From assembly GCA_003164715.1 (NCBI GenBank), contig PLTZ01000026.1, positions 712 to 64,711 on the forward strand: 64,000 bases of DNA. The letters are read 5' to 3'. Within the stretch, counting starts at the first letter, position 1. Each line of letters opens with the position of its first letter. The position numbers were made by a program, and so were the translations under genes. Of the stretch, positions 13,834-61,920 are shown one piece after another. The DNA is from Opitutaceae bacterium (GTDB lineage Bacteria > Verrucomicrobiota > Verrucomicrobiia > Opitutales > Opitutaceae). The notes below the pieces were generated by a model. The model saw only the letters and a list, made by a program, of their open reading frames with translations. It was not told where the DNA came from and did no database searches.

Positions 13834-13969
13834 AGGGGAAAACCGGGGCCTGTGGACCGATGAAACTAGCCGGGCGAGAATGCCGTGTAAAGCGGTCCCC
13901 GCGCCGGCGATCCGAGACTCGACCGCGCGGCCCCTTTCCTGCAGGCTCGGGGGTCCGCACCTTGGCGCC

Positions 13970-42273: not shown

Positions 42274-42479
42274 TGCCCCGCGGGGCGCATGAAGGCGTCC
42301 GCACCAGGCTGACGGCCCCGCCGCACACTGAAGCGCGCCCCCTTTAGGCCTGCAAAAAATGCACGATGTTGGTCCAAAAACGCGGAGCCGTGGCGCGCCT
42401 GAGGGCCTACACTTCGCTCGCCCGAACCCGCTGCGCGTGCGCCCGCGCCGGATCCGCGGCCGAACCCCCTTTCGATCCG

Positions 42480-45358: not shown

Positions 45359-46498
45359 TCAAGGCTGCCGTCCGGCAACCGCGGATTCGCCCGGACCCAG
45401 CAGGCGGGAGAACGATCCCATGGCCTCGGCGAATTCGGCGGGAGCAAAATCGGGCTGCGATTGCGCCAGCTCGAACAGGCGGTCGAGCTGACTGGATACG
45501 CCGGCGCCCCGCTCGGCGGGTGGAAGCGCGCCGACCAGCCGGTCCAGTGCCAGGACCAGACGCTCGGCCCGGTAAGCCTGCTGCAGGGCCGGAATCCCTG
45601 CGTCAAGGAAGTCCCCCTGGGTGGCGGATAGGCGGCGCAGCGCGGTCCAGGTGTCCCGCGGTGTCCAAGCGCGCGCCGCGCGCCTGGCGAGCTGGTCGGC
45701 TGTAGCCATCGTTTCAACGAGCTCGTTGCGCGAAGGGGCGGCCGCGTCGTGTGGAGCGCTGGCGCTTGTCAAGCCACTCCGGTTCGCGAGCCAAGCCAAG
45801 CCTTGCCAAGTCAGCACGGCCCGATCCGAGGCGGCCGAGCCATTGAGCAGGGACCAGCTGGCCTCACGCAACGCCACGGATTGCCCGACACACCACGCCT
45901 GTGCGCCCGCGAAGGGGGGAATTTCCCGCCAGTGCCGGGGCTCGTCCTGGGTCTGGCCGTCGAGCTCGAATACCAAGGTCGGGTGGCGGCCCGAGCGGAC
46001 GATCTCGGGATCAATGTTTTGGTGGCATGCCACACAGGTGTTCGCCCGGGTGTAAAGGTCGTTCAGGTCGCGCATCCCAGCCGCAACCCGGTCGGCATGG
46101 GTCCAGTCGGGGCGGGTGTGCCCCCGGAGCCAGCCGTCGGGCAGCGCGTGGCAGCTGACGCACGACACCCCCTCGGCCGGGTCCGCCCCGGTCCCCGGAG
46201 GCGCGCCGGCCAGGGGTGCGTGGCAGACAACGCAACGCGAGCTTTGCTCGGGGTGGGGGATTCCGAGCGCCTCGCCCATTCGCGCGGCGCGGGCGGTGGC
46301 CAGGGTGGCATAGGAGCGGGAGTGCACATCCCGCTGCGACCAGGTGACAAACTGGCTGCTCTTGTCTCCCGCCCCCCCGTGACAGCTGCTCGCTGAACAG
46401 GAATTCGCCCCCAGGGAAACGGCCTCCGCAGCCCGGACCCTCAAAAGGAGGGCAACACCCAAGGCGAAAATCAATCGATTCTTGTTGGCCGATTTCAT
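45359..46498 (-). CDS. Secreted multiheme c-type cytochrome (cytochrome c554-like N-terminal domain)
   Basis: Signal peptide MKSANKNRLIFALGVALLLRVRAAEA. It has three canonical CXXCH motifs (CVVCH, CVSCH, CVACH) plus an N-terminal CSASSCH (CX4CH-type). The C-terminal ~200 aa are heme-free and helical. Confidence 0.8.
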   Translation of the reverse strand: MKSANKNRLIFALGVALLLRVRAAEAVSLGANSCSASSCHGGAGDKSSQFVTWSQRDVHSRSYATLATARAARMGEALGIPHPEQSSRCVVCHAPLAGAPPGTGADPAEGVSCVSCHALPDGWLRGHTRPDWTHADRVAAGMRDLNDLYTRANTCVACHQNIDPEIVRSGRHPTLVFELDGQTQDEPRHWREIPPFAGAQAWCVGQSVALREASWSLLNGSAASDRAVLTWQGLAWLANRSGLTSASAPHDAAAPSRNELVETMATADQLARRAARAWTPRDTWTALRRLSATQGDFLDAGIPALQQAYRAERLVLALDRLVGALPPAERGAGVSSQLDRLFELAQSQPDFAPAEFAEAMGSFSRLLGPGESAVAGRQP

Positions 46499-46537: not shown

Positions 46538-47902
46538 ATGGTCCGCAAGGTCAGCTCTTCCAGCAGCAAATTGCATGGATTGGGTCCGACCGGGCAACTC
46601 TACAACGAAATGCTAGCGAAAATATTGGATGCGATCGCAGCGCATCCGGCGCTGTACGTCGGGTTGCTGACCGTCTTTTGCTTGGTCCTGCAGGTTTTCC
46701 TCCTGGGCGCGCAGGGCGTCGGCCGGATGCTCGACGATCGCAAGCGGGCCGTACTCGAGCGCCGCCGCCTGGAATTGGAGATCGAGAAGGCCCGCCTGCA
46801 CATCAAGGCGGCGGAGGAGGCCAAGCAGGCGTGGAATGGGGTCCGCAAATTCGCGGTCGCCCGGAAGATGCTGGAGTGCGCGGACACCTTCTCCTACTAC
46901 CTCGAGCCCCACGACCGTCGGCCGCTGCCGGCCTTCAAGCCGGGGCAGTACCTGACCTTCCATCTCAACGTCCCGGGTGCCAGCAAGCCGATCGTGCGGT
47001 GCTACTCGCTCTCCGACATGGCGCGGGCCACGCACTACCGGGTCACGATCAAGCGCTGCGCGGCCCCGGAGGGCTCGCCGCACCCGCCGGGCGTCGGGTC
47101 CTCCTTCTTCACCGACCAGGTCAAGGTGGGCGACATCCTGGATGTGAAGGCCCCCAGCGGCCATTTCTTCCTCGACATCGAGAAGGACCGGCAGGTCGTG
47201 CTCATCTCGGGCGGGGTGGGCGTCACCCCGATGATGGCCATGGCGCAGGCCCTGAAATACGCGGGCTCGACCCGCGAGATCTGGTTTTTCCACGGCGCCC
47301 GCAACACCAAGGACCACATGATGCGGGAGGAGATGGCCGCGCTGGCGGCCGACTACGAGCATCTCCGAATGCACATCTGCTATTCCAAGCCGCTCGAAAC
47401 CGACGTGATGGGACGGGATTACCAGCACGCCGGGCGGGTGACGGTGGAGCTGTTCAAGCAGCTCCTCCCCTCGAACAATTACGATTACTTCCTCTGCGGC
47501 CCCGGACCCTTTATGGAGACGATCACGGAGGACCTGCGCAAATGGGGCGTCCCGGACGCCTGGGTGCATTTCGAGGCCTTTGGCCCCGCCTCGGTCAAGC
47601 GCACGGCCAAGCCCGAGACCAAGGTGGGGGTAACGGTGCCTCCAATGGGCGGGATCGACGTCACCTTTGCGAAATCCGGCCGCACCCTCACGTGGCAGGG
47701 TTCCGGCCTGTCGCTCCTGGACCTGGCCGACGAGAACCAGATCAAGATCGACGCGGGCTGCCGCGCGGGAAACTGCGGCTCCTGCCTCGTGGCCATTAAA
47801 TCGGGCACGGTGGAGTATCTCGGGGCGCACGCCGACGTCGAGGACGGATCCTGCCTGGCCTGCGTCTGCCGACCCGCCTCCGCACTCGTCATTGACGCAT
47901 AA
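46538..47902 (+). CDS. Membrane-anchored FNR-type flavoprotein reductase with C-terminal plant-type 2Fe-2S ferredoxin domain
   Basis: N-terminal TM helix (ALYVGLLTVFCLVLQVFLLGA) followed by a coiled coil. It has the FAD motif RCYSLS, the NAD(P)H motif LISGGVGVTPMM, and CGPGPFM. The 2Fe-2S motif is CRAGNCGSC (CX4CX2C) plus a distal CLAC. An alternative start at 46610 (MLAKIL) is possible. Confidence 0.8.
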   Translation: MVRKVSSSSSKLHGLGPTGQLYNEMLAKILDAIAAHPALYVGLLTVFCLVLQVFLLGAQGVGRMLDDRKRAVLERRRLELEIEKARLHIKAAEEAKQAWNGVRKFAVARKMLECADTFSYYLEPHDRRPLPAFKPGQYLTFHLNVPGASKPIVRCYSLSDMARATHYRVTIKRCAAPEGSPHPPGVGSSFFTDQVKVGDILDVKAPSGHFFLDIEKDRQVVLISGGVGVTPMMAMAQALKYAGSTREIWFFHGARNTKDHMMREEMAALAADYEHLRMHICYSKPLETDVMGRDYQHAGRVTVELFKQLLPSNNYDYFLCGPGPFMETITEDLRKWGVPDAWVHFEAFGPASVKRTAKPETKVGVTVPPMGGIDVTFAKSGRTLTWQGSGLSLLDLADENQIKIDAGCRAGNCGSCLVAIKSGTVEYLGAHADVEDGSCLACVCRPASALVIDA

Positions 47903-49626
47903 TGAGCAAATCGAATGCAGGCCTGAACCGGCCCAAGCGCTGGGATTTCGCGTTCAGCGATGAGATGTCCGACCAATTGGTGGACCGCATCATGCAGATG
48001 GCACCCTTCAGGGACATGGACCCGGAGGGCTTCCCCCGCTCGGCCCAGCTGCCGGACATCCTGAAGAACGATGCGCGCCTGCGGGTCTTCGAGCCCGGCG
48101 AGATTGTCGTCCGGCAGGGGGACTACGGCAACAGCGCCTTCATGGTCTTGACCGGGTCGGCGGAGGTCGTGCTCAGCCCCGGCCTGCCGCCCCGGCTGGA
48201 GGGCCGCAGCGAGCCCAAGCGGAAGCGATGGCTTCACCTGCTGGGCCAGTTTATCGGTAACTCGCGCGAGGACGAGGTGGTCCGGACCTCTTCCGCGCGG
48301 CCGGCCGGCGTGGCGCCGTCGGCCCAGGGGACGGCGCGGGGCGTGATCCTCCAGGACGTTCCGCGGGTCCTGAGCGGGCAGCGCACCGCGACGATCCGGG
48401 AGAGGGATTTTTTCGGGGAGATCGCCGCGCTCTCGCGGCTGCCCCGGACCGCGACCATCTTGGCCGGGGTCCAGGGGGCGGAGATGCTCGAGCTCCGCTG
48501 GCAGGGGCTGCGCGACCTGATGCGAAACGCTCCGCAGCTGCGGCGGTTCATCGACGGGATCTACCGCGAGCGGGCCCTGTCCACGTTCCTGGACGCGTTG
48601 CCCTTCATCAAGTACCTGAGCCCTGAGGCCAAGCAGGAGCTTATGGACGCCACCCAGTTCGAGACCTATGGGGAATACGACTGGTCCGGCGACTACAAGC
48701 AGCTGATCAAGAAGGGTGCCTCCGCAGCCCAGGAACCGACCATCGCGGTCGAGGGCGACTATCCCAACAGCGTCGTCATTGTCCGCGCCGGGTTCGGTCG
48801 CCTGACCCAGCGCTACGGCAACAGCCACCGCACCCTCAACTATCTCGGCTCTGGCAAGATGTACGGCTTCGACGAGATCGCCCACAACTGGCGCGAGCCG
48901 AACCACCACGTGCCGCTGCAGTACACCCTGAGGGTGATCGGCTACACCCACGTCGTAGTGATCCCGGCCGCGGTGGTCGAGCGACTGGTGCTGCCCGTCC
49001 TCCCCAAGTCGTCGCTGCCGCCCCTCATCCCCCAGGACCGGCGGACCCGGCCGCGGTTCGAGCCCGCCGCCGGCGACGCCGCCGGGCCCAGGATCCCGCA
49101 GGACGTGATGGAATTCGTCACCCAGGGCCGGTTCTTCAACGGCACGAAGACGATGGTGATCGACCTGGACCGCTGCACGCGGTGCGACGACTGCGTTCGG
49201 GCCTGCGCCGATACGCACGACAACAACCCTCGCTTCCTCCGGTATGGCCCCATCCATGACAACCTGATGATCGCCGAGGCGTGCATGCACTGCGCCGACC
49301 CGGTGTGCATGATCGGTTGCCCCACGGGCGCGATTCACCGGGATACCTTTGCCGGGAGCGTGGTGGTGAACGCCGACACGTGCATCGGCTGCTCCGCCTG
49401 CGCCAACAACTGCCCCTACAAGGCAATCCGGATGGTGGAGGCCCGCGACGCGGACGGGGAGATCCTCGTGGCCAGCGACTCGAATCCCATCCACAAGGCC
49501 ACCAAGTGCGATCTCTGCGTCGACCAGTTCGGCGGTCCGGCCTGCGAGCGCGCCTGTCCTCACGACGCCCTCACGCGGATCAACCTCAACACCACGCACG
49601 AACTGGCCCGGTGGCTGCAGCGATGA
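47902..49626 (+). CDS. Cyclic-nucleotide-binding-domain protein fused to a DmsB/HybA-like four-cluster 4Fe-4S ferredoxin domain (cytoplasmic)
   Basis: The first cNMP domain is FEPGEIVVRQGDYGNSAFMVLTGSAEV...FFGEIAALSRLPRTATILA. A second degenerate cNMP-like domain follows. Four Cys motifs are present: CTRCDDCVRAC, CMHCADPVCMIGCP, CIGCSACANNCP and CDLCVDQFGGPACERACP. There is no signal or TAT peptide. The start overlaps the upstream stop (TAATG). Confidence 0.8.
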   Translation: MSKSNAGLNRPKRWDFAFSDEMSDQLVDRIMQMAPFRDMDPEGFPRSAQLPDILKNDARLRVFEPGEIVVRQGDYGNSAFMVLTGSAEVVLSPGLPPRLEGRSEPKRKRWLHLLGQFIGNSREDEVVRTSSARPAGVAPSAQGTARGVILQDVPRVLSGQRTATIRERDFFGEIAALSRLPRTATILAGVQGAEMLELRWQGLRDLMRNAPQLRRFIDGIYRERALSTFLDALPFIKYLSPEAKQELMDATQFETYGEYDWSGDYKQLIKKGASAAQEPTIAVEGDYPNSVVIVRAGFGRLTQRYGNSHRTLNYLGSGKMYGFDEIAHNWREPNHHVPLQYTLRVIGYTHVVVIPAAVVERLVLPVLPKSSLPPLIPQDRRTRPRFEPAAGDAAGPRIPQDVMEFVTQGRFFNGTKTMVIDLDRCTRCDDCVRACADTHDNNPRFLRYGPIHDNLMIAEACMHCADPVCMIGCPTGAIHRDTFAGSVVVNADTCIGCSACANNCPYKAIRMVEARDADGEILVASDSNPIHKATKCDLCVDQFGGPACERACPHDALTRINLNTTHELARWLQR

Positions 49627-50450
49627 GGGTGCGCCGGCTCTTGAACCGCCTTTCCTACCCGGTCTGCTTCCTCATGGCCGGCGCCGCGGCGCTTTGGGAG
49701 TTCCCGCGGGCGCGGACGGCCTATCCGCGGCTGGACTACTTGACCGGCTGGTTGCTGATGGCGGCGGTGCTCTTTCTCACCGCCTATAACGGCAGGAAGA
49801 AGATTGCCTTCCTGCCCCTCGCCAGCTCGCGGGCCTGGCTGCGCGTCCATGCGTGGCTCGGCATGCTGACCGGCCTCGTTTTTTTCCTCCACACCCGCTG
49901 GCGGGCGCCCTCCAGCCCCTTCGAGCTCGCCCTGGCCGCCCTATTTGTCGCCGTGACCCTGAGCGGGCTGGTCGGCTGGGGGCTCTCGCGCATCCTGCCG
50001 GGACGCCTCACCACCGCCGGCGGCGAGGTGCCCTACGAGAGGATTCCCGTGATCCGGCGTGCGCTGCGGGAAAGGGCCCAGGAGCTGGTCCTCGAGGTCG
50101 TGCCGACGGCGGGGACCACGACCCTGGCGGATTTCTACGCCGCCCGGCTCAGTCCGTTCTTTTCCGGCCCGAAGGGCTTCGCCTCGCACCTGTTCGGCTC
50201 GGCCCGGACCCTCAAGGGTCTCTTGACCGACATCGACCAGGTGAAGATGCACCTCGGCGACCACGAGAAGTCGGCCGCCATCGAGCTGGCCGCCCTCGTC
50301 CGTGAGAAGGACGCACTCGACCTGCACCGCTCGGTCCAGCTGGTCCTGAAGGGCTGGCTCTTCGTGCACATACCGTTGACCTACGGGTTGCTCGCCTTCG
50401 TTGCAGTCCACGTGGTGCTGGTCTACTCGTTTGCCGGGGGGGCGCGATGA
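49623..50450 (+). CDS. Polytopic membrane protein with conserved-looking His in TM helices (possible b-heme/ferric-reductase-like transmembrane electron carrier)
   Basis: ORF 49281..50450 trimmed to the ATG at 49623, which overlaps the upstream stop (ATGA). It has about 5 TM helices. Histidines lie inside or next to helices: WLRVHAWLGMLTGLVFFLHTRW, WLFVHIPLTYGLLAFVAVHVV. The function is inferred, not recognised. Confidence 0.55.
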   Translation: MRVRRLLNRLSYPVCFLMAGAAALWEFPRARTAYPRLDYLTGWLLMAAVLFLTAYNGRKKIAFLPLASSRAWLRVHAWLGMLTGLVFFLHTRWRAPSSPFELALAALFVAVTLSGLVGWGLSRILPGRLTTAGGEVPYERIPVIRRALRERAQELVLEVVPTAGTTTLADFYAARLSPFFSGPKGFASHLFGSARTLKGLLTDIDQVKMHLGDHEKSAAIELAALVREKDALDLHRSVQLVLKGWLFVHIPLTYGLLAFVAVHVVLVYSFAGGAR

Positions 50451-52156
50451 GCCAGGGCAAGGTTCCGTCCCCCCATTTCGACGATTCGCGCTATGAGCGG
50501 CCGAACAAGGGCTGGCTGTGCGGCCACACCTGCGAAGGCTGCCCCTGCCGGATCGGGCCGAGCCCGAAGGGCCAGTGCCGCGCGACGACCGAGTGCACGC
50601 CGCGGCTCGTCCTCAAGCCCGGGGAAACGAAGGGGACCTGGGCCTGTACCCGGCAGGCGGACTGGGGCGGGCCCTGCGAGCCGGGCCCGTTGCCGGACGG
50701 GCAATGCTGCCGTCAGATTGAGCGGTGCCGGCCCGTGCGCAGCCTGCGCAAGCGCCGGGGCCTCGTGGTCGCGGCGGTCCTGGCCGTCTGCCTGGGCATC
50801 CTCATGATCGGGCTCTCCTGGCCGCTGCGGGCCTCCTTCATCAGCCCCCGCCCGCTGTCCGAGCACCATTCCGGGGCCGCTTTCGCGCGCATAGGCAAAA
50901 ACCCCGCCGACCAGGGCTGCGCGCATTGTCACGGCAACGCCAATGCCAGGTTCGGCGAGCTGGTCTTCGCGGCGGTGGCGGCTTCCCGGACCTCCCTCCG
51001 GTTCTCCGAGCTACCCTCCGGCCATCCCACGGACTTCTCCGCGATGGACCGGTCCTGCCTCGCCTGCCACGCGGCCAAGTCGTTCCACCATGCCAATGTG
51101 GCGGCGAACGACTCCTGTTCAATCTGCCACCGCGAGCACCAGGGCGGCGGCCCGATGGCGGCGGTCACGCCCGCCAACTGCGTCGGGTGCCACGGCGACG
51201 CGGTGCAGATGGCCGCCGCCCGGGAAAAGGGGCGACTCCTGCCCGCGGCGCTCCTGGCGCCGCGGTTGCCGCCCGGGGTGATCGTCCCGCCGGTTCCCCG
51301 GCCATCGACCGGCTACACCGAGGTCATCACCAGTTTCGCCGTCGACCACCCGGAATTCCGGGTGCTCCGCGACCATATTCCGGACCCGAATACCCTGCGG
51401 TTCAACCACCGGCTGCATCTGGGCGGCTCCGACATCCCGCTGGTGAACGGCCGGCCGCTCGACTGCGCCTTCTGCCACGCCCCGGATGCTTCCGGCGCGT
51501 TCAAGAAGCCCGTGCCCTTCGAGACGGCCTGCAGGGTCTGCCATGACCTCAGCTTCGACGAGCACAATCCCGGCCTCGTCCTGCCTCACGGGGACCCGGC
51601 CATCGTGCGCGCCTTCCTGCGGAGCTTGCCCGTGCAGTACGCCGATTACGCGAACCGAAGGCTGGGCCTCGGCGGCAAGGACCAGATCGACGCCTTTGTC
51701 CGGTCCCAGGTGCGGTCCCTGCGGGAGCGGGCGCGCAGCGGTGAGGACCTCGAACAAGTGGTGTTCCTGAGCACGATGGCGAAGGGTCCGGTGCCAGGCA
51801 TCGCCGGTTCCGGAGTGGTCGGGCGGACCCGGTTCTCCGGCTGCGCGCTTTGCCACCAGGTCTCCTGGCGGGGAGGCGCGGCGGTTCCGATCGTGGCGGC
51901 GCCCCGGCCGCCGGACCGGTGGCTACCCGGAGCCCGTTTCAGCCATGCCTTCCATGAATCGGTCGCCTGTGCGGATTGCCACGCCGCGGCGAAGAGCGAG
52001 CGAACCTCCGACGTGCTGATTCCGACGCAGCAGAGCTGCGTCCGCTGCCACAGCCCCAATGGCGGGGTCGCAGATTCCTGCACGACCTGCCATACGTTCC
52101 ATAACCCGCCGCCCGCGTCTCCGGCCGCCAGGACGCTCGCGACCTCGCAGCCTTGA
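50447..52156 (+). CDS. Membrane-anchored decaheme c-type cytochrome with Cys-rich N-terminal (cytoplasmic-side) domain
   Basis: It has ten CXXCH motifs: CAHCH, CLACH, CSICH, CVGCH, CAFCH, CRVCH, CALCH, CADCH, CVRCH, CTTCH. The N-terminal ~100 aa contain 11 Cys (WLCGHTCEGCPC...QCCRQIERC) ahead of RKRRG and one TM helix (LVVAAVLAVCLGILMIGLSW). The start overlaps the upstream stop (ATGA). Confidence 0.85.
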   Translation: MSQGKVPSPHFDDSRYERPNKGWLCGHTCEGCPCRIGPSPKGQCRATTECTPRLVLKPGETKGTWACTRQADWGGPCEPGPLPDGQCCRQIERCRPVRSLRKRRGLVVAAVLAVCLGILMIGLSWPLRASFISPRPLSEHHSGAAFARIGKNPADQGCAHCHGNANARFGELVFAAVAASRTSLRFSELPSGHPTDFSAMDRSCLACHAAKSFHHANVAANDSCSICHREHQGGGPMAAVTPANCVGCHGDAVQMAAAREKGRLLPAALLAPRLPPGVIVPPVPRPSTGYTEVITSFAVDHPEFRVLRDHIPDPNTLRFNHRLHLGGSDIPLVNGRPLDCAFCHAPDASGAFKKPVPFETACRVCHDLSFDEHNPGLVLPHGDPAIVRAFLRSLPVQYADYANRRLGLGGKDQIDAFVRSQVRSLRERARSGEDLEQVVFLSTMAKGPVPGIAGSGVVGRTRFSGCALCHQVSWRGGAAVPIVAAPRPPDRWLPGARFSHAFHESVACADCHAAAKSERTSDVLIPTQQSCVRCHSPNGGVADSCTTCHTFHNPPPASPAARTLATSQP

Positions 52157-52173
52157 AACGGGGCCTTGTCGCA

Positions 52174-54345
52174 ATGTCGGTCGTCCTACTGCTGGTCGCC
52201 TGCGCACACGTGGCGTCAGAGGCCGGCAAGCCGCGGCCAAGGGCCCGCCAGCGGCCGAGCGAGGGCCCTCCCCCGGCGGAGCCCGGGACGGTCCGCCTTG
52301 ATCCCGGGGCGCCATTGCCGCCGTTGCCCCCGGTGTCGGGCCTGCCGCCCCTCCACGTGGTGAGGGTGCCGGAAGGGCGGGCGCAGCCGGGCACCCAGTT
52401 CAACCCTGATCCCGGCGCCTCCGGGCTGGCGACCCCCGCACCGGAACCGCCCCTCTTTACCACTTGGACGGGCGAGGACCTCGTTGCGTCCGCACCGATC
52501 CCGACCGCGCAGGGCGACCTGTACCGCGCCCAGATCGAGCCGGCGCCGGCGGCGACTCCCACGGTTCCCTTTGGGACGGATCCCCTGCCGCCGGCACTGA
52601 AGCTGCCGCGGCCGGGCGTGAAGGCCAACGAGTACATTCCCACGAACTGGCAGGCGCCGGACCACTATTCCCCGGTCGACCCCAGCGCCGAGTACCCCGG
52701 GGCCGAGCTGGTCCGCGACCGATGGTCGGTCGGTTACCAGCCGTGGCGCCGGTACTCCGTCGGCAATCCCGAGGAGATGCCCTATTTCTTCCCGGCCCCA
52801 GCGCTGTGGCACTTTTACCGCCAAAGCCGACTGAAGGGCGATGTGCCGATTCGGGGCCCGGACCTTTTCCTTCGGCTCACCGCCGCCGAGTCGCTGACCG
52901 CGGTGGAAGCCCGGGTGCCCGTTCCGGGCGGCGAGGCGCGGGCGGTCCCGGGCGGCCCCGATTTCTTCGGCGGGAGCACGGAGCGGTTCGTTGAGTCGGA
53001 CTTTGCCTTTGAGGCCGACCTTTTCCGGGGTGACACCGTGTTCCAGCCCTCCGATTGGCTGGTGCACCTGAAGACGGTCATCGACTTTAACCACCTTGAT
53101 TTTCGCGAGACGTGGCGGGAGGACCCTGGGGCGAAGTCCGGCGCCGGCGAGGACACCGTGGTCGCACCCACCACCCGGAATCGAAACTATTTCGCCCTGG
53201 AGGAGGCGTTTGTGGAGAAGCACCTGACGAACCTCTCGCCCAATTTTGATTTTTCCTCGGTTCGCATCGGCAACCAGCACTTCAACAGTGATTTCCGGGG
53301 TTTCGTATTCAACGACACCGACTTCGGCGCCCGGCTGTTTGGCAACTACGACTCCAATCGGTGGCAGTACAACCTGGCGCTCTTTGACCTGCGGGAGAAG
53401 GATGCGGATTCCGGACTCAACACCCTGCGGCGCCGGGGCCAGCTAGTCGCGGTGGCCAATTTATACCACCAGGATTCGTGGCTTCCGGGCTATACCACAG
53501 AGGTCAGCGTGCTCGCCAGCTTTGACCAGGGCGACCCGTACGCCGACGACAATGGCTTGATGGTGCGCCCGGCGCAGCTGGGCGCGGCGCGGCCGCACCG
53601 GGTCGAAAGCTACTACCTCGGTTGGACCGGCGAGGGCCACCTCGGCCGCTGGAACCTCACCGACGCCCTCTACCTGGCCACCGGCCGGGATGATTTCAAC
53701 AGCCTCTCGGGCCAATCCGAGGATATCCTCGCCGGGATGGCGGCGGTGGAGGTCAGCTATGACCGCGACTGGCTCCGGTACAAGGCGGTGGGCTTCTTTG
53801 CCTCCGGCGACCAGCACACCCGCGGCGATCTGGCGACCGGATTTGACTCGATCGACGACGACTCCAATTTGGCCGGCCCGTTCAGCTACTGGCTGCACCA
53901 GAGTTTCAACGCCTCAGGTTCCGGCCTGAGCCTCAAGCAGCCGGCGAGCCTCCTGCCGGACGTGCGCGCTGGCGCCGCGGGGGAGGGCGAGGCCAATTTC
54001 GTCAACCCGGGACTGCTTCTGGCTGGCCTCGGCGCGGAGGCGGACCTGACGCCCAGGCTGCGGGCCTTCGCCAACGCCAATTACCTTTGGTTCGATGCCA
54101 CCGACCCGATCAGGACCCTTTTGCCGGGCAGCGTGGTGTCCCCGAACATCGGCACCGACCTGAGCATGGGATGCCAGTGGCGGCCCTTCCTGATCAGCAA
54201 CGTGGTCCTTTCCGCTGGGTGCGGCTTCCTGCTGCCGCAGGCCGGCTTCAAGGCGATGTACCGGACTCTGCCACCGCCGGAGCGAGGAGTCGGGGTTGAC
54301 GATTTCCTCTACAGCGCGATCCTCGCCGCCACGTTCACCTACTAG
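52174..54345 (+). CDS. Putative outer-membrane beta-barrel protein (porin/alginate-export-like), lipoprotein-type signal
   Basis: MSVVLLLVACAH gives a lipobox (LVAC). A Pro-rich ~150 aa linker is followed by long amphipathic beta-like sequence (SVRIGNQHFNSDFRGFVFND, WQYNLALFDL, YYLGWTGEGHLGRWNLTDALYL, ANANYLWFD). The C-terminus AILAATFTY has the aromatic-terminal OMP signature. An alternative TTG start at 52153 overlaps the upstream TGA. Confidence 0.6.
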   Translation: MSVVLLLVACAHVASEAGKPRPRARQRPSEGPPPAEPGTVRLDPGAPLPPLPPVSGLPPLHVVRVPEGRAQPGTQFNPDPGASGLATPAPEPPLFTTWTGEDLVASAPIPTAQGDLYRAQIEPAPAATPTVPFGTDPLPPALKLPRPGVKANEYIPTNWQAPDHYSPVDPSAEYPGAELVRDRWSVGYQPWRRYSVGNPEEMPYFFPAPALWHFYRQSRLKGDVPIRGPDLFLRLTAAESLTAVEARVPVPGGEARAVPGGPDFFGGSTERFVESDFAFEADLFRGDTVFQPSDWLVHLKTVIDFNHLDFRETWREDPGAKSGAGEDTVVAPTTRNRNYFALEEAFVEKHLTNLSPNFDFSSVRIGNQHFNSDFRGFVFNDTDFGARLFGNYDSNRWQYNLALFDLREKDADSGLNTLRRRGQLVAVANLYHQDSWLPGYTTEVSVLASFDQGDPYADDNGLMVRPAQLGAARPHRVESYYLGWTGEGHLGRWNLTDALYLATGRDDFNSLSGQSEDILAGMAAVEVSYDRDWLRYKAVGFFASGDQHTRGDLATGFDSIDDDSNLAGPFSYWLHQSFNASGSGLSLKQPASLLPDVRAGAAGEGEANFVNPGLLLAGLGAEADLTPRLRAFANANYLWFDATDPIRTLLPGSVVSPNIGTDLSMGCQWRPFLISNVVLSAGCGFLLPQAGFKAMYRTLPPPERGVGVDDFLYSAILAATFTY

Positions 54346-54364: not shown

Positions 54365-57300
54365 ATGCCCCCGTCCCTGATGCCCGCCGGATTCCTCGCC
54401 CGCCTGATTGGAGCGGTGCTTGGCGTGGCCGTGGCCGGGAGCGTCCTTGCATCCAAGACGGCCGGCGCCAGTGACGAACCCGGGGTGTCCATCTTCGGGC
54501 CGCCGGTCTCTGTGCCGCGCGACGCCCGCGCGGACGGGGCCGCGCTCCCGCCGCCGAAGGAGCGCAACTGGATCGACCAGACTCCGGAGGCGGCGCGCCG
54601 GAAGAGCGCAGGCTGCCTGGAATGTCACTCCGGGGTGGAGACCATGCACTCCTCGCCCGACGTGGTGCTGGGCTGCGTCGACTGTCACGGCGGAGACCCG
54701 ACGCCCGGGCTGACCCAGCGCAAGGCCCACGTCAGACCGCTGAACCCGGTATTTTGGGAAAGTTCAGCCAAGCCGGCCGACTCCTCGGTCCTGCTGAACC
54801 ACGAATCTCCCGATTTTATCCGTTTCGTGAACCCGTCCGACCTGCGGGTCGCCGGGCAAGCCTGCGGTCCCTGCCACGGCGAGATCGTGACCCACGTCGG
54901 CTCGAGCATGATGAACCACGGTGCGATGCTCTGGGGGGCCGCCTTGTACAACAACGGCTCAACCCCGTTCAAGAATTACCGGTACGGCCAGGCGTACGCC
55001 GGCAATGGCGAGGCGCTGCGCCTTGAGAGCCCCATCCCCGTGACCCCGGAGATGACCATCCTGCACGGCCTGCTTCCCTTCCTGGAGCCGCTGCCGCGCT
55101 TCGAGGCCAGCCAGCCCTCCAACATCCTCCGCGTCTTCGAGGAGGGCCAGCAGAAGCAGCTGGCCCTCGGCAACCCCGACCCCGAGGATTCCCCGGGACG
55201 CCCGGCCCACCGCCTGTCCGAGCGTGGGCTCGGAACGCTCAACCGGATCGACCCCGTGTTCCTCAACCTCCAGAAGACGCGCCTCAACGATCCGCTGCTG
55301 GGGTTCATGGGGACCAACGACCATCCCGGGGATTATCGCTCGTCGGGCTGCGCCGCCTGCCACGTCATCTACGCCAACGATCGGTCCCCGACCAACTCGG
55401 GCTGGTGGTCAAAGTACGGGAACCAGGGCCTGAGCTTCACCGCCGACACGATGATCTCGAAGACGGAGAAGGCGCACCCGATCCGCCATCAGTTCACCCG
55501 CAGTATCCCTTCCAGCCAGTGCATGTCCTGCCACATGCACCAGGGAAACCTCTTCGTTAACCCGTTCCTAGGCTATATCTGGTGGGACCAGGAGAGCGAC
55601 GGCGAGTTCATGTACCCTTCCAAGCAGAAGAACCCCACTGAGAAGGAGATGGCCGACTCCGTGCTCCACAACCCGGAAGCGGCCGCCGCGCGGGGGCTGT
55701 GGGGCGATCCCGATTTCCTCGAAAAGGTCGCCGAACTGAACCCCAAGCTGAAGCAGACGCAGTTCGCGGACTACCACGGGCACGGGTGGGTCTTCCGCGC
55801 GGTGTTCAAGAAGGACCGGGAGGGCACGCTCCTCACCCTGGATGACAAGCCGATCGACCATAACGACCGGGAGAAATTCTCCAAGGCGGTCCACCTGAAG
55901 GACGTCCACCTCGCCCGGGGAATGCAATGCGTGGACTGCCACTTCCAGACAGACGTCCACGGCAACGGGCTCCTGTACGGCGAGCCGCGGGCGGCTACCG
56001 CGATCGAGTGCATCGACTGCCACGGGACGATCGACCGGCGCCCGACCCTGCGCACGAGCGGGAACTCTGGCACCTTCACCGAGGGCCATGTCGAGCCCAT
56101 TGACCTGGCCAAGGGATCGACCCCGTGGGGGCCCCGTTTCTACTGGCAGGGCCCGCGCCTCTTCCAGCGGTCCATGATGTCGCCGAATGTCGTCTGGGAG
56201 GTCCCGCAGACCCGGGACACGATCGACCCCTCCTCCCCGCGGTACAATGCCAAGTCCGCCTATGCGAAGACCCTGCGCAGGGACGGAAGGAGCTGGGGCG
56301 GCGTTCCCACCAAATCCGTGGGGCTCATCACCCCGGAACTCGCGCATGCGAACTCGAACATTTCCTGCGCCATCTGCCACACCTCGTGGGCGACCAGCTG
56401 CTTCGGCTGCCATTTGCCCATGCGGGCCAACAAGGCGGTCGCGGCCAACAAGTTCGAGGGAATCACGACCCGCAACTACACGACCTACAATCCCCAGGTG
56501 GTGCGCGACGACGTGTTCATGCTGGGCCGCGACGCCACCTACAAGGACCACCGGCTCGCGGTCCTGCGGTCGTCGAGCGCCGTAATCGTGGGCTCCCAGA
56601 ACTCCAACCGGGAATGGATCTATGCGCAGCAGCAGACCATTTCCGCCGAGGGCTATTCCGGGCAGGCCTTCAACCCGCATTTTCCCCACACCACCAGCTC
56701 GGTCGGCACGACCAAGAACTGCACCGATTGTCATCTTTCGGCGGCCAATGACAACAATGCCTGGATGACCCAGCTGCTGGGCTTCGGCACGGGAACGGTC
56801 AATTTCTTTGGCCGCTTTGCCTATGTCGCGTCGGGGCCGGCCGGCTTTGACGCCGTCGCCTGGACGGAGGAAGAGGAGCCCCAGGCGGCGATCGGCAGCC
56901 ACCTCCAGCACCTGGCCTATCCCGACAACTATCGGCGGCACGTGGAAACCAACGGCGGCGTGCTGCAGGAATCGTATCACCACGCGGGCGAGGACATCCG
57001 GGATCTCACCATCCGGGGAGAATACCTCTACACCGCCAACGGGCCCGGGGGCTTCGAGGTCTTCGACGTCGCCAACGTGGCCAACAAGGGATTCTCGCAG
57101 CGGATCGTCTCCGCACCGGTGTCGCCGCTCGGCCAGCGGCTCTGGGTCAAGACCAAGTACGCCACCAGCGTGGTCCTGCCGACCACCTTGGGGGTCGACC
57201 CGCTGCGCTCCCACCGGCCGGAAAACGAGGAACAGCCGATCAGCCCCATCTATGGCTACGTCTACGTGACGGACCGCTACGAGGGCCTGGTCACGGTGAT

Positions 57301-58246
57301 GGTGGGAACCCTCCTGGATGGCGATCCGTCGGATAACTTCCTCAAGGAATCCGACGTGACGCGCTTCAACCCGGGAGGGGCCCTGGACGGCGCCACCCAT
57401 GCGTACATGGCCGGTAGCCGCCTCTACGTTACCTGCGACGCCGGGTTGGTCGTGGTCGACATCTTGGACCCGACCAAGCCTCGGATCGTGGGCCGTTCCC
57501 AGGCGGGCGCCCTGCGCCACCCCCGCCGCCTCGCCGTCCAGTTCATGTACGCCTTTGTTTCCGACGACGACGGCGTGAAGGTGTTTGACCTGAGCACCCC
57601 GGATGCCCCCTGCCTGGTGCCCGCCGCCACGGTGCCCCTCCGCGACGCCCAGGGGCTCTATGCCGCTCGCACCTACCTCTACGTTGCCGATGGCGCCGAG
57701 GGCCTGGCAATCGTGGACATCAAGAACCCCGCCGCCGCCCACCTGAGCGAGATCTTCAGTGCCCACGGCGCCCTCAGCGACACCCGCGCCGTGCAAGTGG
57801 GGGCGGTCAACGCGTCCATGTACGCGCTCGTGGCGGACGGAAAGAACGGCCTGCGGGTGCTCCAAATGGTCTCGCCCGAGAACGTCCCCGGCTACATGGG
57901 GTTCAGCCCCCCGCCCAATCCCAAGCTGATCGCCACCTTCCCAACCCGGGGGGCCGCCGTCGCGGTCGGCCGCGGCCTTGACCGTGATCGCGTTGTCGAT
58001 GAATCCGGCAACCAGACGGTGGTCTTCGGGCGCAGGGGCAGCCGGCCCTTGAACGCCGAGGAGTTTGACACCTTCCTGCGCCGTGCGGGCGAGCTCTACC
58101 GGGTGGATGACGTGAAGGTCGTGGATGGCGCCCTGCGTACGAGCGCCGGCGCGACGCTTACGCCCACCGAGACGTTCACGTCCGACGCGCAGACACCCGA
58201 TGCGCCGGAGGAATCGGGCCGGCTCCGGCGGCGGCCTCCGGATTGA
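54365..58246 (+). CDS. Giant decaheme c-type cytochrome fused to a C-terminal LVIVD-repeat beta-propeller
   Basis: ORF 54296..58246 trimmed to the ATG at 54365 (MPPSLMPAGFLARLIGAVLGVAVAGSVLAS, signal/anchor). It has ten CXXCH motifs: CLECH, CVDCH, CGPCH, CAACH, CMSCH, CVDCH, CIDCH, CAICH, CFGCH, CTDCH. From about 56990 there are six LVIVD-type blades: YLYTANGPGGFEVFDV, YVYVTDRYEGLVTVMV, LYVTCDAGLVVVDI, YAFVSDDDGVKVFDL, YLYVADGAEGLAIVDI, MYALVADGKNGLRVLQM. The 920 aa antisense ORF is spurious. Confidence 0.85.
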   Translation: MPPSLMPAGFLARLIGAVLGVAVAGSVLASKTAGASDEPGVSIFGPPVSVPRDARADGAALPPPKERNWIDQTPEAARRKSAGCLECHSGVETMHSSPDVVLGCVDCHGGDPTPGLTQRKAHVRPLNPVFWESSAKPADSSVLLNHESPDFIRFVNPSDLRVAGQACGPCHGEIVTHVGSSMMNHGAMLWGAALYNNGSTPFKNYRYGQAYAGNGEALRLESPIPVTPEMTILHGLLPFLEPLPRFEASQPSNILRVFEEGQQKQLALGNPDPEDSPGRPAHRLSERGLGTLNRIDPVFLNLQKTRLNDPLLGFMGTNDHPGDYRSSGCAACHVIYANDRSPTNSGWWSKYGNQGLSFTADTMISKTEKAHPIRHQFTRSIPSSQCMSCHMHQGNLFVNPFLGYIWWDQESDGEFMYPSKQKNPTEKEMADSVLHNPEAAAARGLWGDPDFLEKVAELNPKLKQTQFADYHGHGWVFRAVFKKDREGTLLTLDDKPIDHNDREKFSKAVHLKDVHLARGMQCVDCHFQTDVHGNGLLYGEPRAATAIECIDCHGTIDRRPTLRTSGNSGTFTEGHVEPIDLAKGSTPWGPRFYWQGPRLFQRSMMSPNVVWEVPQTRDTIDPSSPRYNAKSAYAKTLRRDGRSWGGVPTKSVGLITPELAHANSNISCAICHTSWATSCFGCHLPMRANKAVAANKFEGITTRNYTTYNPQVVRDDVFMLGRDATYKDHRLAVLRSSSAVIVGSQNSNREWIYAQQQTISAEGYSGQAFNPHFPHTTSSVGTTKNCTDCHLSAANDNNAWMTQLLGFGTGTVNFFGRFAYVASGPAGFDAVAWTEEEEPQAAIGSHLQHLAYPDNYRRHVETNGGVLQESYHHAGEDIRDLTIRGEYLYTANGPGGFEVFDVANVANKGFSQRIVSAPVSPLGQRLWVKTKYATSVVLPTTLGVDPLRSHRPENEEQPISPIYGYVYVTDRYEGLVTVMVGTLLDGDPSDNFLKESDVTRFNPGGALDGATHAYMAGSRLYVTCDAGLVVVDILDPTKPRIVGRSQAGALRHPRRLAVQFMYAFVSDDDGVKVFDLSTPDAPCLVPAATVPLRDAQGLYAARTYLYVADGAEGLAIVDIKNPAAAHLSEIFSAHGALSDTRAVQVGAVNASMYALVADGKNGLRVLQMVSPENVPGYMGFSPPPNPKLIATFPTRGAAVAVGRGLDRDRVVDESGNQTVVFGRRGSRPLNAEEFDTFLRRAGELYRVDDVKVVDGALRTSAGATLTPTETFTSDAQTPDAPEESGRLRRRPPD

Positions 58247-58281
58247 GAACCGGTAAACCATTAATCCCCTCGGAGACTGGA

Positions 58282-58358
58282 TGGTGGACGCTACAGGATT
58301 CGAACCTGTGACCCCGTGCGTGTGATGCACGTGCTCTAACCAGCTGAGCTAAGCGTCC
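58282..58358 (-). tRNA. tRNA-Val (anticodon CAC)
   Basis: The minus-strand read is GGACGCUUAGCUCAGCUGGUUAGAGCACGUGCAUCACACGCACGGGGUCACAGGUUCGAAUCCUGUAGCGUCCACCA. It folds as a cloverleaf with a 7 bp acceptor stem and D arm GCUC/GAGC. The anticodon stem is CGUGC/GCACG with loop AUCACAC (anticodon CAC). The T arm is ACAGG-UUCGAAU-CCUGU, and the CCA end is encoded. Confidence 0.95.
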
Positions 58359-58445: not shown

Positions 58446-61400
58446 TCAGGCCCGCAGCGGACGGCGGCGGAGTCCAAGCAGCGCGACCGCGAGGAGGCCC
58501 GATCCAAGCAGCGCCCACGTGGACGGCTCGGGCACCGGGGTGAAGTTGAGGAACAGGTCGTTCCCGCTCTCGGTGAAGCTGAAGCTGCCCCCGGCGGTGC
58601 TGTTGGAAAATCCGGTCGTGATCAGGTTGAACTCGTTGGCGTTGAACCCGGTGATTGCGCTGGAGGACGCGGCGAACATCCAGGAATACGGGTTCGCCGG
58701 GTTGAAATTGAGCGCCGCCGCAGAGTTTCCGCTCGCGTCAACCGAGACCAGGTTGAACGTGAACGTGTTTGCGCCCGCGGTCAGCGACAGCCCGCCGTTC
58801 GCCGATATCTCGCTGTAGCCGGTGCCCGCGGCCCCGTTCGCATCGTAGAGCTCGAAGCGCATCGCGCCTCCGGACGCGAGCGTGAGCGCGTTGGTGAAGG
58901 CGAGGTTGCCGGGGCCGCCTCCGGGCGACGCGCTCGGCGACAGGACGACCGAGCCGTTCACGGTGACCGGAGCGGACGCGAGGGTGCCGTTGCCCGAGAG
59001 GACGTTGGCGGCATTTGAAAACATCAGCGGGTTGCTGATCGTGACCCCGTTCATCACGTTGAGGTCGGCGCCCCCGGTCAGGCTCACGGTGTCGGCGCTG
59101 GCACCGAGCGCGTTGTTGTTGCCGGCGATCACCGTGCCGCTCGAGATCGTGAAGGGGCCGGTGAGCCCGCTGTTGTTGGCGGTCAGGGTCAGCGTTCCCC
59201 CGCTGCCGCCGGAGTACGTGGTGGCGGCCGTGCCCGTTGAGGCAACGACGCCCGAGATCGTGATGTTGTCATCGTCGGTGTTCCCAAGCTGGGCTGAGGT
59301 GCCGACCATGGTGATGGCGTTCGGGATCGCGCGCGTGATTCCTGTGCCGAGCGCCGAAAGGGTCGTGCCGGTGTCGAGGAGGATGGTTCCCGTGCCGGCG
59401 GCCGTGTCGCTTCCGAGGAGCAGCACCCCGTCGCGCATGTCGATCCCGTACTGGAACGTGTTGTTGCCGGTGAGGGTGAGCGTGCTCCAGGTGCACCAGG
59501 CGATGCCGTTGGTGCCGGAGATCTGGCCGTTAAGCGTCAGGTTGTTGGAGCCGCCGTCGTCGTTGTCGATGTAGCCGGTGCCGTTGAGGACGATCGGGTT
59601 GGCCAGCGTGACATTTGCCGACGGCGAAAGCTCAGTGTCCTGGTCAAACGTCAGGGTCCCGGTGCCGACCGCCGTGTTGCTGCCGACAAAGAGCTCCCCG
59701 GTCGTCACGGCAGTCCCGCCTGCGTAGGTGTTGTTGCCGGAGAGCGTGATGGCGCCAAGGTTGCTCCCGTAGAGCGTGCCCAGGATGTTGACCATGCCCG
59801 AGCCCGAGATGACGCCCGCGAAGACCGAGCTGTCCGTGCTCGACGGAGCGAACTGGAGGGTCCCGTTGTTCACGACGTTGCCGGCGAGCGAGGCCCCGGT
59901 GGCTGCGCCGTCGCCGATGGACAGCATCGCGCCCGAGCCGATCGTCGTCCCCCCGGTGTAGGTGTTGACGCCGTCGAGAACGGTCGTCCCGCCCGATCCC
60001 GTGACCGCGAGGCTGCCGCCGGCGCCGGAAATATTGCCCGCGAAGGTCTGCGAGCCGCTCGTGCCCGCGATCGTCAGGGTCTGGTTTCCAAGGAGGATCG
60101 AGTTGCCGGCGCCCCCGGAGACCGAGCCGACCGTGTTGCTGAACCCGTTCAGGTCGAGCGTGGCCAGGTACGGGAAGTCCAGCTCGCTAAGGCCCGTCGC
60201 CCCTCCGAAGGCGCTCGCCGAGCCCGCCTTCATCGTGCCCCTGAATATCGTCGTCACGCCCGAGTACGTGTTGGTGCCCGACAGGATGACCGTTCCGCTG
60301 CCGTACTGGCCGACGCCCCCGGAACCGGCGACGTTGTTCGCGAAGGTGAAGCTGTCGCCCCGGGAGAAGCTCACGGAACCCGTCCCGATGACGTTGATGT
60401 TCGAGGCGGGGTCGATGTACCCGTTCGAATCGCTGGAATTGCCGATCTGGAGGGCGCCGGAGGTGATGACGATGGCCCCGGTCCCCGTGGCGTAGCCGCC
60501 TGCGTTGTCCGCGAGGAGCGTGCCGTTACTTATCGCCGTCCCTCCGGAATAGGTGTTGCTGCCGGTCAGATCCAAGACGTAGCCGACCGAGTTGAGCGCG
60601 CCGGTGCCGGAGATGGCGCCCGAGAAGAGCGTGTTGCTTGAGCCGGTGCCGACGGTGAGGGCGCCGGCCCCGAGGGTCACCGCGCCGCTGCCGGCCAGCG
60701 ACCCGATCGTGTTGCTGAACCCGTTCAGGTCGAGGGTGGCGCCGCCGCCCACGCTCACCGCGCTCAGGCCCGTTGCCCCGCCGAAGGCGCTCACCGATCC
60801 CGCCTGCAATGTGCCGTGAATGATAGTGATCGCGCCGGAATTGGTGTTGGTCCCGGAGAGCGTGGTAATGCCCGTTCCGGTCTGCACGACCTGGAGGGCC
60901 CCGGAAAGGTTTCCCGCGTAGGTGTAGGCGTTGGAGCGATCGAAGCCCAGCGTGCCCGTGCCCGACACGCCGCTGCTTGCGATGCTGCCGGTCGTCCCCC
61001 CGTTACCAATCTCGATGGCTGTGCCTCCTACGCCATTGATCACGGTCGGGCCGGTGTAGGTGTTGGCGCCTGTCAGGGTTAGCGTGCCCGTCGTGTCCTT
61101 CTCGATCCCGCCGACGCCGGAGATGACCCCAGAAAAGGTCGTGCTGAAGCCGCCGTTCATGAGCAACGAGGCCCCGCTCGCGATGAGGACGGAGCCGCCG
61201 CTGCTTAGGTAGTCCTGGAGATAAGAGACGGTCTCGTTGAAATTGACGTCCACGGCAGCGCCTGAGGTCACGCTCAGCCCGCTGCCGGGCGCAAACGCGC
61301 CTGCGTTCGCGTCCGCGAGCGTTCCGGAGCTCAACAGGGTGTTGCCGGTGTAGGCGTTCGCAGTTCCTCCGAGCGTCAGGATACCGGTTCCGTTGAGGAC

Positions 61401-61757: not shown

Positions 61758-61920
61758 GGGCGCGAAGGCTTCTGCAAATGGATGGCGTTCACAAGCCCAT
61801 TTTGCAGAAAACTTATTAACTAAATTCAACAATCTAATGACATTGCGCTCACAAACCGTGAGCATTCATTAGTTGTTCCCATGTAATAACCTAACACACT
61901 TACATCCCGCTCGGTGAAAC

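Follow-up and report, generated by a model that had tools for sequence, protein, structure and literature searches.

Within a stretch of 64,000 nucleotides from an Opitutaceae bacterium (NCBI GenBank assembly GCA_003164715.1, contig PLTZ01000026.1, positions 712 to 64,711 of the forward strand), hereafter called the window, one gene (54365..58246) encodes a Sec-exported decahaem c-type cytochrome of 1293 amino acids that continues, in the same polypeptide, into a beta-propeller of the LVIVD type. Coordinates are those of the window, and features lie on its plus strand unless the minus strand is given. The fusion is genuine and is conserved in several bacterial phyla; with the gene directly upstream, which encodes a barrel protein with the predicted fold of the alginate exporter AlgE, it makes up a two-gene cassette in which the barrel is a fixed partner. 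We propose, at a probability of about one half, that the fused protein is the outer-membrane-proximal terminal module of an electron chain that is fed by NAD(P)H and spans the cell envelope. The decahaem-propeller fusion and its wiring are undescribed: the literature searched held no description of an LVIVD repeat fused to a cytochrome, nor of a multihaem cytochrome fused to a propeller.

The open reading frame is read without interruption to its stop codon, and its start codon agrees with an independent gene call in a public assembly, which gave an identical product of 1293 residues (P0001). A motif scan found exactly ten CXXCH motifs, at residues 84, 104, 167, 329, 386, 522, 549, 668, 679 and 786. 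All ten were claimed for the N-terminal part by the original prediction, made from the DNA letters of this gene, and the pairs that it named were recovered as well, their members being spaced by 20, 27 and 11 residues. Twenty of the 22 cysteines of the protein stand inside these motifs and two outside, and in 20,000 shuffles of its residues the mean number of chance CXXCH motifs was 0.01, with a maximum of 2. Sequence inspection and hydropathy place a signal peptide at about residues 1–35 (54365..54469), with the hydrophobic core LARLIGAVLGVAVAGSVLA; inspection found no lipobox cysteine in it. Ten motifs conserved across phyla and a signal peptide together mark the protein as a multihaem c-type cytochrome.

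Evidence for the fusion comes from its relatives. With one genome scanned per species, the fusion was found in at least 589 species, mainly of the Verrucomicrobiota. The best 80 of these carriers, examined by lineage, are nearly all Verrucomicrobiota, a few bearing only a generic 'bacterium' label, and they span the Opitutales, Chthoniobacterales, Pedosphaerales/Limisphaerales and Verrucomicrobiales; the closest relatives among the matches listed are Opitutaceae genomes at 80% identity. A word-indexed protein search with the whole protein returned more than 8000 matches, and the best 120, from Opitutus, Pedosphaera, Limisphaerales and relatives, are mostly full-length (a few are truncated fragments) and 66–100% identical, none of them having been given a name. 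When the haem domain alone was used in an exhaustive HMMER search, 530 clusters at the 50% identity level were found at E < 1e-30, and the full-length cluster representatives with a C-terminal region all match the propeller, down to about 38% identity, the exception being P0121 (1090 residues), where the match covers 70 residues only. A search from a distant member extended the family to Acidobacteria, candidate division KSB1, Wallbacteria and Planctomycetes, with the haem and LVIVD parts always together. The carriers include the complete genome of the cultured strain IMCC26134 (locus L014); a full-length fusion is present in the complete genome CP011265. Separate genes for the two halves in relatives, which the original prediction had named as grounds for giving up the fusion, were never seen among full-length homologues. 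The fused protein is also the most conserved of the seven components of the gene cluster described below, with a median identity of 63.6%, the other six lying at 37–57%, as measured over the 19 loci in which the full set of seven is present; across verrucomicrobial orders its identity is about 60–80%.

Three smaller observations concern the same gene. Its product ends in the tail GRLRRRPPD (58220-58243), a short basic motif of the form GRL-x-RRP-x-D that is kept in the eight closest homologues, those aligned, and is not shared by other phyla. It may serve this lineage as a tag for sorting or for interaction. An antisense open reading frame of 920 amino acids (55568..58330, minus strand) lies opposite the gene and is probably a by-product of the high G+C content of the window (68%), not a gene. 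A scan for terminators and promoters downstream of the gene found nothing.

The propeller occupies residues ~870–1260 (56972..58144). The Pfam family LVIVD (PF08309) matches the protein with 69.9 bits (E = 1.1e-19, cut-off 20.2), three stretches passing individually, and it was matched in all 38 diverse relatives. Five blades of the strict form G-h-x-h-h-D/Q-h were found by motif scan (residues 896, 1027, 1070, 1113 and 1162) and a sixth, degenerate one, EGLVTVMVG near residue 973, was read by eye from the translation, which makes the six blades first reported a fair count; the AlphaFold2 model has about seven four-stranded blades, with a predicted local distance difference test score (pLDDT) of ~90 over the whole region. 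A Foldseek comparison with the PDB returned generic propellers (AztD, WD40, BamB and designed proteins) at 9–13% identity, and its top 50 matches included no pyrroloquinoline quinone (PQQ), d1 or hydrazine synthase enzymes. A reading of the invariant-residue lists gave no Cys or His of the propeller that is invariant across phyla, so that a redox metal or a covalently held cofactor is not indicated. A charged loop of the last blade (RGLDRDRVVDESGNQTVVFGRRGSRP, residues 1204–1228; 57974..58048) is highly conserved; R1207, R1209, D1212, R1223 and G1225 are invariant in it across phyla, and it is modelled at pLDDT < 50. The loop is a candidate site for binding a partner or a ligand.

At the other end of the protein, haems 1–3 form an NrfB-like module (residues 77–173; 54593..54883). 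Escherichia coli NrfB, the pentahaem carrier of the nitrite reductase, aligns with it in hhalign at 96% probability (E = 1.3e-9), with the haem spacing and one conserved His in common, and the NrfB structure 2ozy is matched by the family profile at E = 8e-6. This likeness covers 94 of 1293 residues, and nothing in NrfB corresponds to the other seven haems or to the propeller. Haems 4–10 (residues 329–790; 55349..56734) include a di-haem motif, haems 6 and 7 at residues 512–555, which resembles haems 4 and 5 of NrfA. The hhalign comparison with E. coli NrfA reached 84% probability over 44 residues only, at these two haems, and the match of the family profile to NrfA in the PDB, on the same motif, had an E-value of ~0.01. 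The string CxxCHVxY at haem 4 bears a faint likeness to NrfA haem 3, at a level that is not significant. Unlike NrfA and octahaem nitrite reductase (ONR), which are catalytic multihaem enzymes, the protein has no CXXCK in a motif scan of all 1293 residues, no catalytic module and no signal of Pfam PF02335.

Other comparisons of the haem domain gave little. A single-sequence search of the PDB found no significantly related solved structure, and the matches of the family profile other than NrfB stood at E = 0.01 or worse. Pfam gave weak generic c3/c7 signals near haems 6 and 7 of the protein itself and only generic haem-motif families (c3, c7 and c554, with MtrC/MtrF II–IV in 17 of 38) in the 38 diverse members. 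The families NrfA, HAO, OTR and MccA left no signal in these 38 members under Pfam, nor in the comparison of the family profile with the PDB, and together with the lack of CXXCK this led us to reject the catalytic multihaem classes NrfA, ONR, HAO, OTR and MccA. Close homology of the haem domain to a known enzyme class, which had been foreseen as a result that would overturn the initial view of the protein, was thus seen neither with Pfam and NCBIfam nor with the PDB and hhalign.

Ten haem motifs are universal in the family. Relatives that appear to have nine carry a CX4CH or CX5CH variant at haem 3, which in the window is a plain CGPCH (54863-54877); loss of this haem was considered and rejected, and since the position alternates between the three forms, plain CXXCH counts under-report the haems of the family. 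A check for a haem with an unusual ligand, as had been advised from the first reading, turned up ten conserved histidines for the ten haems instead: H95, H122, H375, H392, H473, H510, H515, H532, H661 and H775 all lie outside the motifs and are at least 91% conserved across phyla. Their number is suggestive of bis-His ligation throughout, since ten would suffice for all ten haems.

The gene directly 5' of the fusion (52153..54345) encodes a protein of 730 amino acids that AlphaFold2 models as a barrel of 18 long strands (pLDDT ~90). The best Foldseek neighbours of this barrel are all AlgE, itself a barrel of 18 strands, at an E-value of 1e-15 and TM-scores of 0.67–0.70. Pfam and NCBIfam gave no family match for the protein itself, and the Pfam family Alginate_exp (PF13372) is recorded for three of its homologues; on the evidence of the model, it is a relative of AlgE at the level of fold only. 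The barrel gene stands directly upstream of the fusion, on the same strand, in 55 of the 62 loci with enough flanking sequence (median gap 31 bp), and a homologous barrel is also found upstream in two loci from distant phyla (hhalign 100%). Ahead of the barrel lies an N-terminal region of about 230 residues (52153-52850) that is rich in proline and modelled as disordered. It contains the motif FNPDPG, in which F83, P85, D86, P87 and G88 are invariant. The protein was also considered as a lipoprotein, and probably is not one, because its lipobox, LVAC, is not conserved in its family.

The fused protein itself is probably periplasmic and close to the outer membrane. OmpA-type and AMIN domains are periplasmic modules that bind the cell wall; at one locus (L082, 7599-14116) the cytochrome-propeller protein, here 1371 residues long, has gained a C-terminal OmpA peptidoglycan-binding domain (residues 1225–1297) and its barrel partner an N-terminal AMIN domain. 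Among 235 homologues, 146 have no Cys ahead of haem 1, and a lipobox-like motif occurs in 24, about 90% being without one. The 26-strand barrel of MtrB forms a sheath around MtrA, and a barrel of 18 strands is too narrow for sheathing of this kind. These domain additions, the rarity of the lipobox and the narrow barrel are indirect signs that together favour a periplasmic position next to the outer membrane. Contact with minerals, humic matter or polymers, the example given in the original prediction, is not favoured for the cell surface, given the AlgE-like barrel, the ~90% of homologues without a lipobox and the OmpA and AMIN additions. A relative from a public metagenome (P0135, 1648 residues) has 28 CXXCH motifs, with 18 extra c7-type haems placed ahead of the usual ten-haem and propeller body; the NrfB-like N-terminus therefore seems to be the point at which the protein joins the periplasmic chain.

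Around the cassette lies a wider conserved system, which had been overlooked in the original prediction. In the window the barrel and fusion genes close a translationally coupled operon of six genes, with overlaps of stop and start codons along it. The first gene (46538..47902) encodes a 454-residue NAD(P)H:FAD reductase of the flavohaemoprotein-reductase type with a C-terminal 2Fe-2S ferredoxin domain (Pfam FAD_binding_6, NAD_binding_1 and Fer2; NCBIfam Hmp reductase domain, 267 bits). The second (47902..49626) encodes a cytoplasmic protein of 574 residues with two cyclic-nucleotide-binding domains (Pfam cNMP_binding, 3.3e-18) and a ferredoxin domain with several 4Fe-4S clusters (Fer4 families, and DmsB/HybA/NrfC-like matches in NCBIfam). 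The third (49623..50450) encodes a membrane protein of 275 residues, to which no Pfam or NCBIfam family could be assigned. Its predicted transmembrane helices contain two HX13H pairs, formed by H77, H91, H250 and H264 (H76, H90, H249 and H263 when counted from the Met), and these four residues are 100% conserved in an alignment of 26 sequences, the window protein and 25 homologues. The pattern is that of NOX and ferric reductases, and from it the protein is a putative transmembrane carrier with two b haems. The fourth gene (50447..52156) encodes a second decahaem cytochrome, of 569 residues, ten CXXCH motifs being kept in 30 of 31 homologues. This cytochrome would be anchored in the inner membrane by a helix at residues 102–120, found by hydropathy, which is preceded by RKRRG and leaves a Cys-rich N-terminal domain in the cytoplasm. 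Nine cysteines of this domain (C25, C34, C44, C50, C67, C77, C87, C88 and C94) are at least 85% conserved, and residues 1–100 may thus bind a metal or an Fe-S cluster at the cytoplasmic face of a cytochrome that is otherwise periplasmic.

Members of the NADPH oxidase/ferric-reductase-domain superfamily (NOX, FRE, MsrQ) combine an NAD(P)H flavoprotein with pairs of transmembrane histidines that hold two b haems, and so carry electrons across a membrane. The input genes of the window follow the same logic, with a flavoprotein and two HX13H pairs in transmembrane helices; they differ in that the subunits are separate, Fe-S and cyclic-nucleotide-binding proteins are interposed and no match to the superfamily is detectable. 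In 26 of 80 loci the genes for the cyclic-nucleotide/4Fe-4S protein, the membrane protein and the inner-membrane decahaem were detected no more than 10 kb from the cassette; three arrangements occur, and the same trio is found at the distant locus L081. That the trio is kept in different orientations indicates selection for its linkage. In six loci of the Chthoniobacterales type a NuoE/NuoF-like NADH module stands beside the cyclic-nucleotide/Fe-S protein in place of the FNR-like reductase, a non-orthologous replacement by which an NAD(P)H-oxidising input is preserved. The cluster also includes an adenylate/guanylate cyclase with a CHASE2 domain in 13 loci, a plausible local source of the signal for the cyclic-nucleotide-binding domains; examples of the NuoE/F-like and cyclase genes are found at L040 (17439-22028 and 22030-23694) and L018 (3775-5946). 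These genes hint at control of electron flow by cyclic nucleotides. The conserved locus contains no recognisable quinone-linked component.

Two further genes lie upstream of the operon. A divergent gene on the minus strand (45359..46498) encodes a c554-like cytochrome of 379 residues with a signal peptide (Pfam Cytochrome_C554, 5e-9); its three CXXCH motifs are present in 25 of 26 homologues, and it is syntenic in many loci. Beyond it, a large secreted protein of 976 residues (42366..45296) has DUF362 and Ig domains in Pfam. The C-terminal third of the latter resembles HbpS-like proteins (39% identity between window positions 44373-45284 and locus L040 by tblastn), and an HbpS-like (PF03928) gene is a neighbour of the barrel in 43–44 of 80 loci (for example L018, 5953-7527, and L040, 4881-7229).

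The route that we propose would begin with the FAD/2Fe-2S reductase, which would oxidise cytoplasmic NAD(P)H and pass the electrons to the cyclic-nucleotide-binding 4Fe-4S protein, a possible gate. The four-His, di-haem-b-like protein would next carry them over the inner membrane to the anchored decahaem cytochrome, from which they would traverse the periplasm, possibly by way of the tri-haem c554-like protein. Entry into the fused protein would be at its NrfB-like N-terminal haems, followed by transfer along its ten haems, probably all of the bis-His type. At the outer membrane, the propeller may either dock the protein under the barrel or present to it an acceptor that enters through the barrel. 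The direction that we infer is outward, an export of electrons in the manner of NOX; for the acceptor, the leading guesses are Fe(III), in soluble or chelated form, and humic quinones. What the data show are the domain content, the modelled folds of propeller and barrel, the conservation, the synteny and the cofactor motifs of each partner; direction, b-haem binding, gating, docking and acceptor are inferences from these. The tri-haem module at the presumed point of entry is of the kind that NrfB uses to pass electrons on, and this also counts in favour of the proposal.

Several observations weigh against it. Many of the carrier lineages are aerobic and live in soil and freshwater, which makes a role in anaerobic respiration alone unlikely. 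The highest conservation within the cluster would be unusual for a mere wire and would fit a catalyst. In many loci the input module is not adjacent to the cassette, the contig being often, but by no means in every case, too short; and at L082, where no input module is found nearby, a gene for a small monohaem cytochrome c follows instead. The AlphaFold2 model of the haem domain, built from an alignment of 52 sequences, is unusable (pLDDT < 50), so that haem order, ligation and the geometry of haems and propeller cannot be assigned from it. The periplasmic placement draws mainly on added domains, which were seen at one locus and in two protein clusters. A lipobox-like signal does occur in about 10% of relatives, and elsewhere the proteins annotated with LVIVD repeats are cell-surface ones.

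A broader form of the proposal is offered tentatively, as a possibility that falls well short of even chances. According to it, the cassette and the genes linked to it would form an export system that is gated by cyclic nucleotides, driven by NAD(P)H and independent of the quinone pool, common in Verrucomicrobiota and found in several further phyla, with the propeller serving at the outer membrane in docking or in binding the acceptor. If so, abundant polysaccharide degraders of soil and freshwater would dump reducing equivalents outside the cell or reduce iron in order to take it up.

In its general design the system belongs to the envelope-spanning kind that combines multihaem cytochromes with an outer-membrane barrel. 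As in MtrCAB of Shewanella and OmaB/OmbB/OmcB of Geobacter, the gene for an outer-membrane barrel is clustered with those of multihaem cytochromes, presumably along a route across the envelope. It is made distinct by the fused LVIVD propeller, the AlgE-type barrel and an NAD(P)H input that is apparently independent of quinones. The fused protein and its neighbours have no sequence homology with the Mtr and Pcc (porin-cytochrome) proteins: NCBIfam gave no match for the fused protein to MtrA/DmsE, MtrB, MtrC/OmcA or OmaB/OmbB/OmcB, and the DmsE and OmcA/MtrC families scored 18–24 bits against cut-offs of 192–209, in the neighbouring cytochromes only. Weak matches to PF22113 occur in 17 of 38 relatives and not in the protein of the window. 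Further, the predicted 18-strand AlgE-like barrel falls short of the 20–26 strands of a sheath, the large cytochrome, probably a periplasmic one, ends in a propeller, and the source of electrons would be NAD(P)H, with Fe-S centres and a b-haem-like membrane protein as intermediates, instead of the quinol pool.

A related arrangement has been predicted before. He et al. (2017; PMC5615132) predicted for Verrucomicrobia of freshwater what they called a 'novel porin-multihaem cytochrome complex', which would pass electrons to humic substances, with IMCC26134, O. terrae and 'Ca. Udaeobacter' among its carriers; the predicted periplasmic cytochrome had eight conserved haem sites and the porin at least 20 strands, and the cluster was reported only from genomes of a humic bog. 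That cluster is probably the present system, because the locus of IMCC26134 (L014), a strain named there as a carrier, holds the present cluster; the correspondence could not be confirmed, the supplements being without gene identifiers. The descriptions differ in that here both large cytochromes have ten haems, the barrel has 18 strands and the carriers number at least 589 species. More recently, a report on Fe(III) respiration by Limisphaera isolates mentioned porin-associated multihaem cytochromes, the present protein not being analysed there (PMC13608581, 2026).

The first alternative, which takes up the main idea of the original prediction and the proposal of 2017, is that the cassette is a classical porin-cytochrome conduit, in which the protein is secreted across the outer membrane, is fed through the barrel by a periplasmic cytochrome and holds on to minerals, humics or polymers with its propeller. 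We regard this as doubtful, though it is by a small margin the likeliest of the alternatives. The order of barrel and multihaem genes is like that of Mtr and Pcc, and a conduit has been proposed for Verrucomicrobia (PMC5615132); LVIVD repeats have been described as cell-surface modules (preprint 10.1101/2022.05.06.490989), the extracellular cytochrome islands of D. ferrophilus include genes for separate beta-propeller proteins (PMC8322314), Fe(III) is reduced by Limisphaera (PMC13608581), and the lipobox-like signal of ~10% of relatives would suit a surface protein. Yet the barrel is an 18-strand, AlgE-like one and not a 26-strand MtrB sheath, no small rod-shaped cytochrome like MtrA is encoded beside it, and homology to Mtr and Pcc families is lacking (23–24 bits against a cut-off of 192 for the DmsE family). 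Most members have no lipobox, and the peptidoglycan-binding additions give a periplasmic location to the two ends that carry them, the C-terminal end of the fusion (OmpA) and the N-terminal end of its barrel partner (AMIN).

The nearest systems with propellers or with a comparable set of genes are only partly alike. The best NCBIfam match of the fused protein is to ExtM (GSU2935, 12 haems), whose Geobacter cluster extHIJKLMNOPQS likewise groups a porin, cytochromes and a b-type membrane protein; ExtM, however, has no propeller, the match spans about 50 residues, and membership in its family (NF040943) was rejected at 65.7 bits against an equivalog cut-off of 800 bits. Beta-propeller genes stand near extracellular cytochromes in D. 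ferrophilus (DFE_0451, DFE_0452 and DFE_0463; PMC8322314), and an LVIVD protein has been noted in 'Ca. Tenderia' (preprint 10.1101/2022.05.06.490989). In both cases propellers are genetically associated with multihaem electron-transfer systems, as here; there the propeller is a separate protein, of unstated family in D. ferrophilus, whereas here it is fused and of the LVIVD family.

A second alternative makes the fused protein a periplasmic redox enzyme, its active site lying at the propeller or at one of the haems, with the haem chain feeding that site and the barrel admitting a small soluble substrate. Enzymes that combine a propeller with cytochrome c do exist, cd1 nitrite reductase and the quinohaemoprotein dehydrogenases among them. 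An identity of 62–80% across Verrucomicrobiota orders, against 37–57% for the partners, is more enzyme-like than is usual for an outer cytochrome; the charged loop at residues 1204–1228 is strongly conserved, and AlgE-type barrels are channels specific for solutes or polymers. Hydrazine synthase is another precedent for a propeller with cytochrome c, and O. terrae has homologues of its propeller-cytochrome (PMC12758564); the present protein was compared with these and set apart, the order of domains being different and Foldseek giving no structural match. The original prediction had also raised a catalytic site, formed by the propeller or recognisable by an unusual haem, and no positive evidence for it was found: CXXCK is absent, conserved histidines and haems are equal in number at ten each, the residues of the propeller that are invariant across phyla include neither Cys nor His, NrfA, HAO, OTR and MccA signals are absent from the 38 diverse members and from the profile search of the PDB, and the top 50 Foldseek matches are generic propellers with no PQQ, d1 or hydrazine synthase among them. 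We consider an enzyme of this kind doubtful as well, and only slightly less likely than the surface conduit.

Electrons could also run the other way, inward from a donor outside the cell, for which Fe(II) and reduced humics are examples. Multihaem chains are reversible in principle, and small-barrel cytochrome systems such as Cyc2 operate in this direction (PMC6344600). Uptake is nonetheless very improbable here. The linked module is an NAD(P)H-type flavoprotein, or of the NuoEF type in other lineages, and the reduction of NAD(P)+ by Fe(II) needs an input of energy, for which no coupling component is encoded. The hosts, moreover, are mostly heterotrophs that degrade polysaccharides, with GH53 and GH5 genes in the window itself. 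Finally, an artefact of assembly or annotation that joined two genes is practically negligible as an explanation, with full-length fusions in hundreds of independent assemblies, in a complete genome and in distant phyla.

Verrucomicrobiota rank with the most abundant heterotrophs of soils and lakes, and little is known of how they live without oxygen or balance their redox state. The cytochrome-propeller protein is a very widespread, highly conserved and uncharacterised component found throughout this phylum. Should it indeed be the end of an NAD(P)H-fed chain, it would represent a new architecture, with a small AlgE-type barrel, a fused propeller and no quinone step, and it would give LVIVD propellers their first functional context. 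Were it only a structural variant of porin-cytochrome systems, it would still redefine the spread of such systems outside Proteobacteria and Desulfobacterota. The hypothesis can be tested in IMCC26134, a cultured and fully sequenced carrier.

Other genes of the window are less closely tied to the cassette. Convergent to the fusion gene, positions 58446-61865 (minus strand) encode a protein of 1139 residues with passenger-associated-transport repeats and a PEP-CTERM signal, which is not syntenic elsewhere. Next to it on the same strand (61921-63998) are genes for a CCG/4Fe-4S protein of the GlpC/LldF type and for the C-terminal domain of an FAD-linked oxidase, probably a glycolate/lactate-type oxidase operon; L065 is the sole further locus where this pair stands near the cassette. 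At 3906-6593, 10286-12691, 12742-14010 and 41095-42273 the window encodes two ABC permeases of the MacB/FtsX type, a GH5 cellulase and a GH53 galactanase, genes that fit an Opitutaceae-like host degrading polysaccharides.

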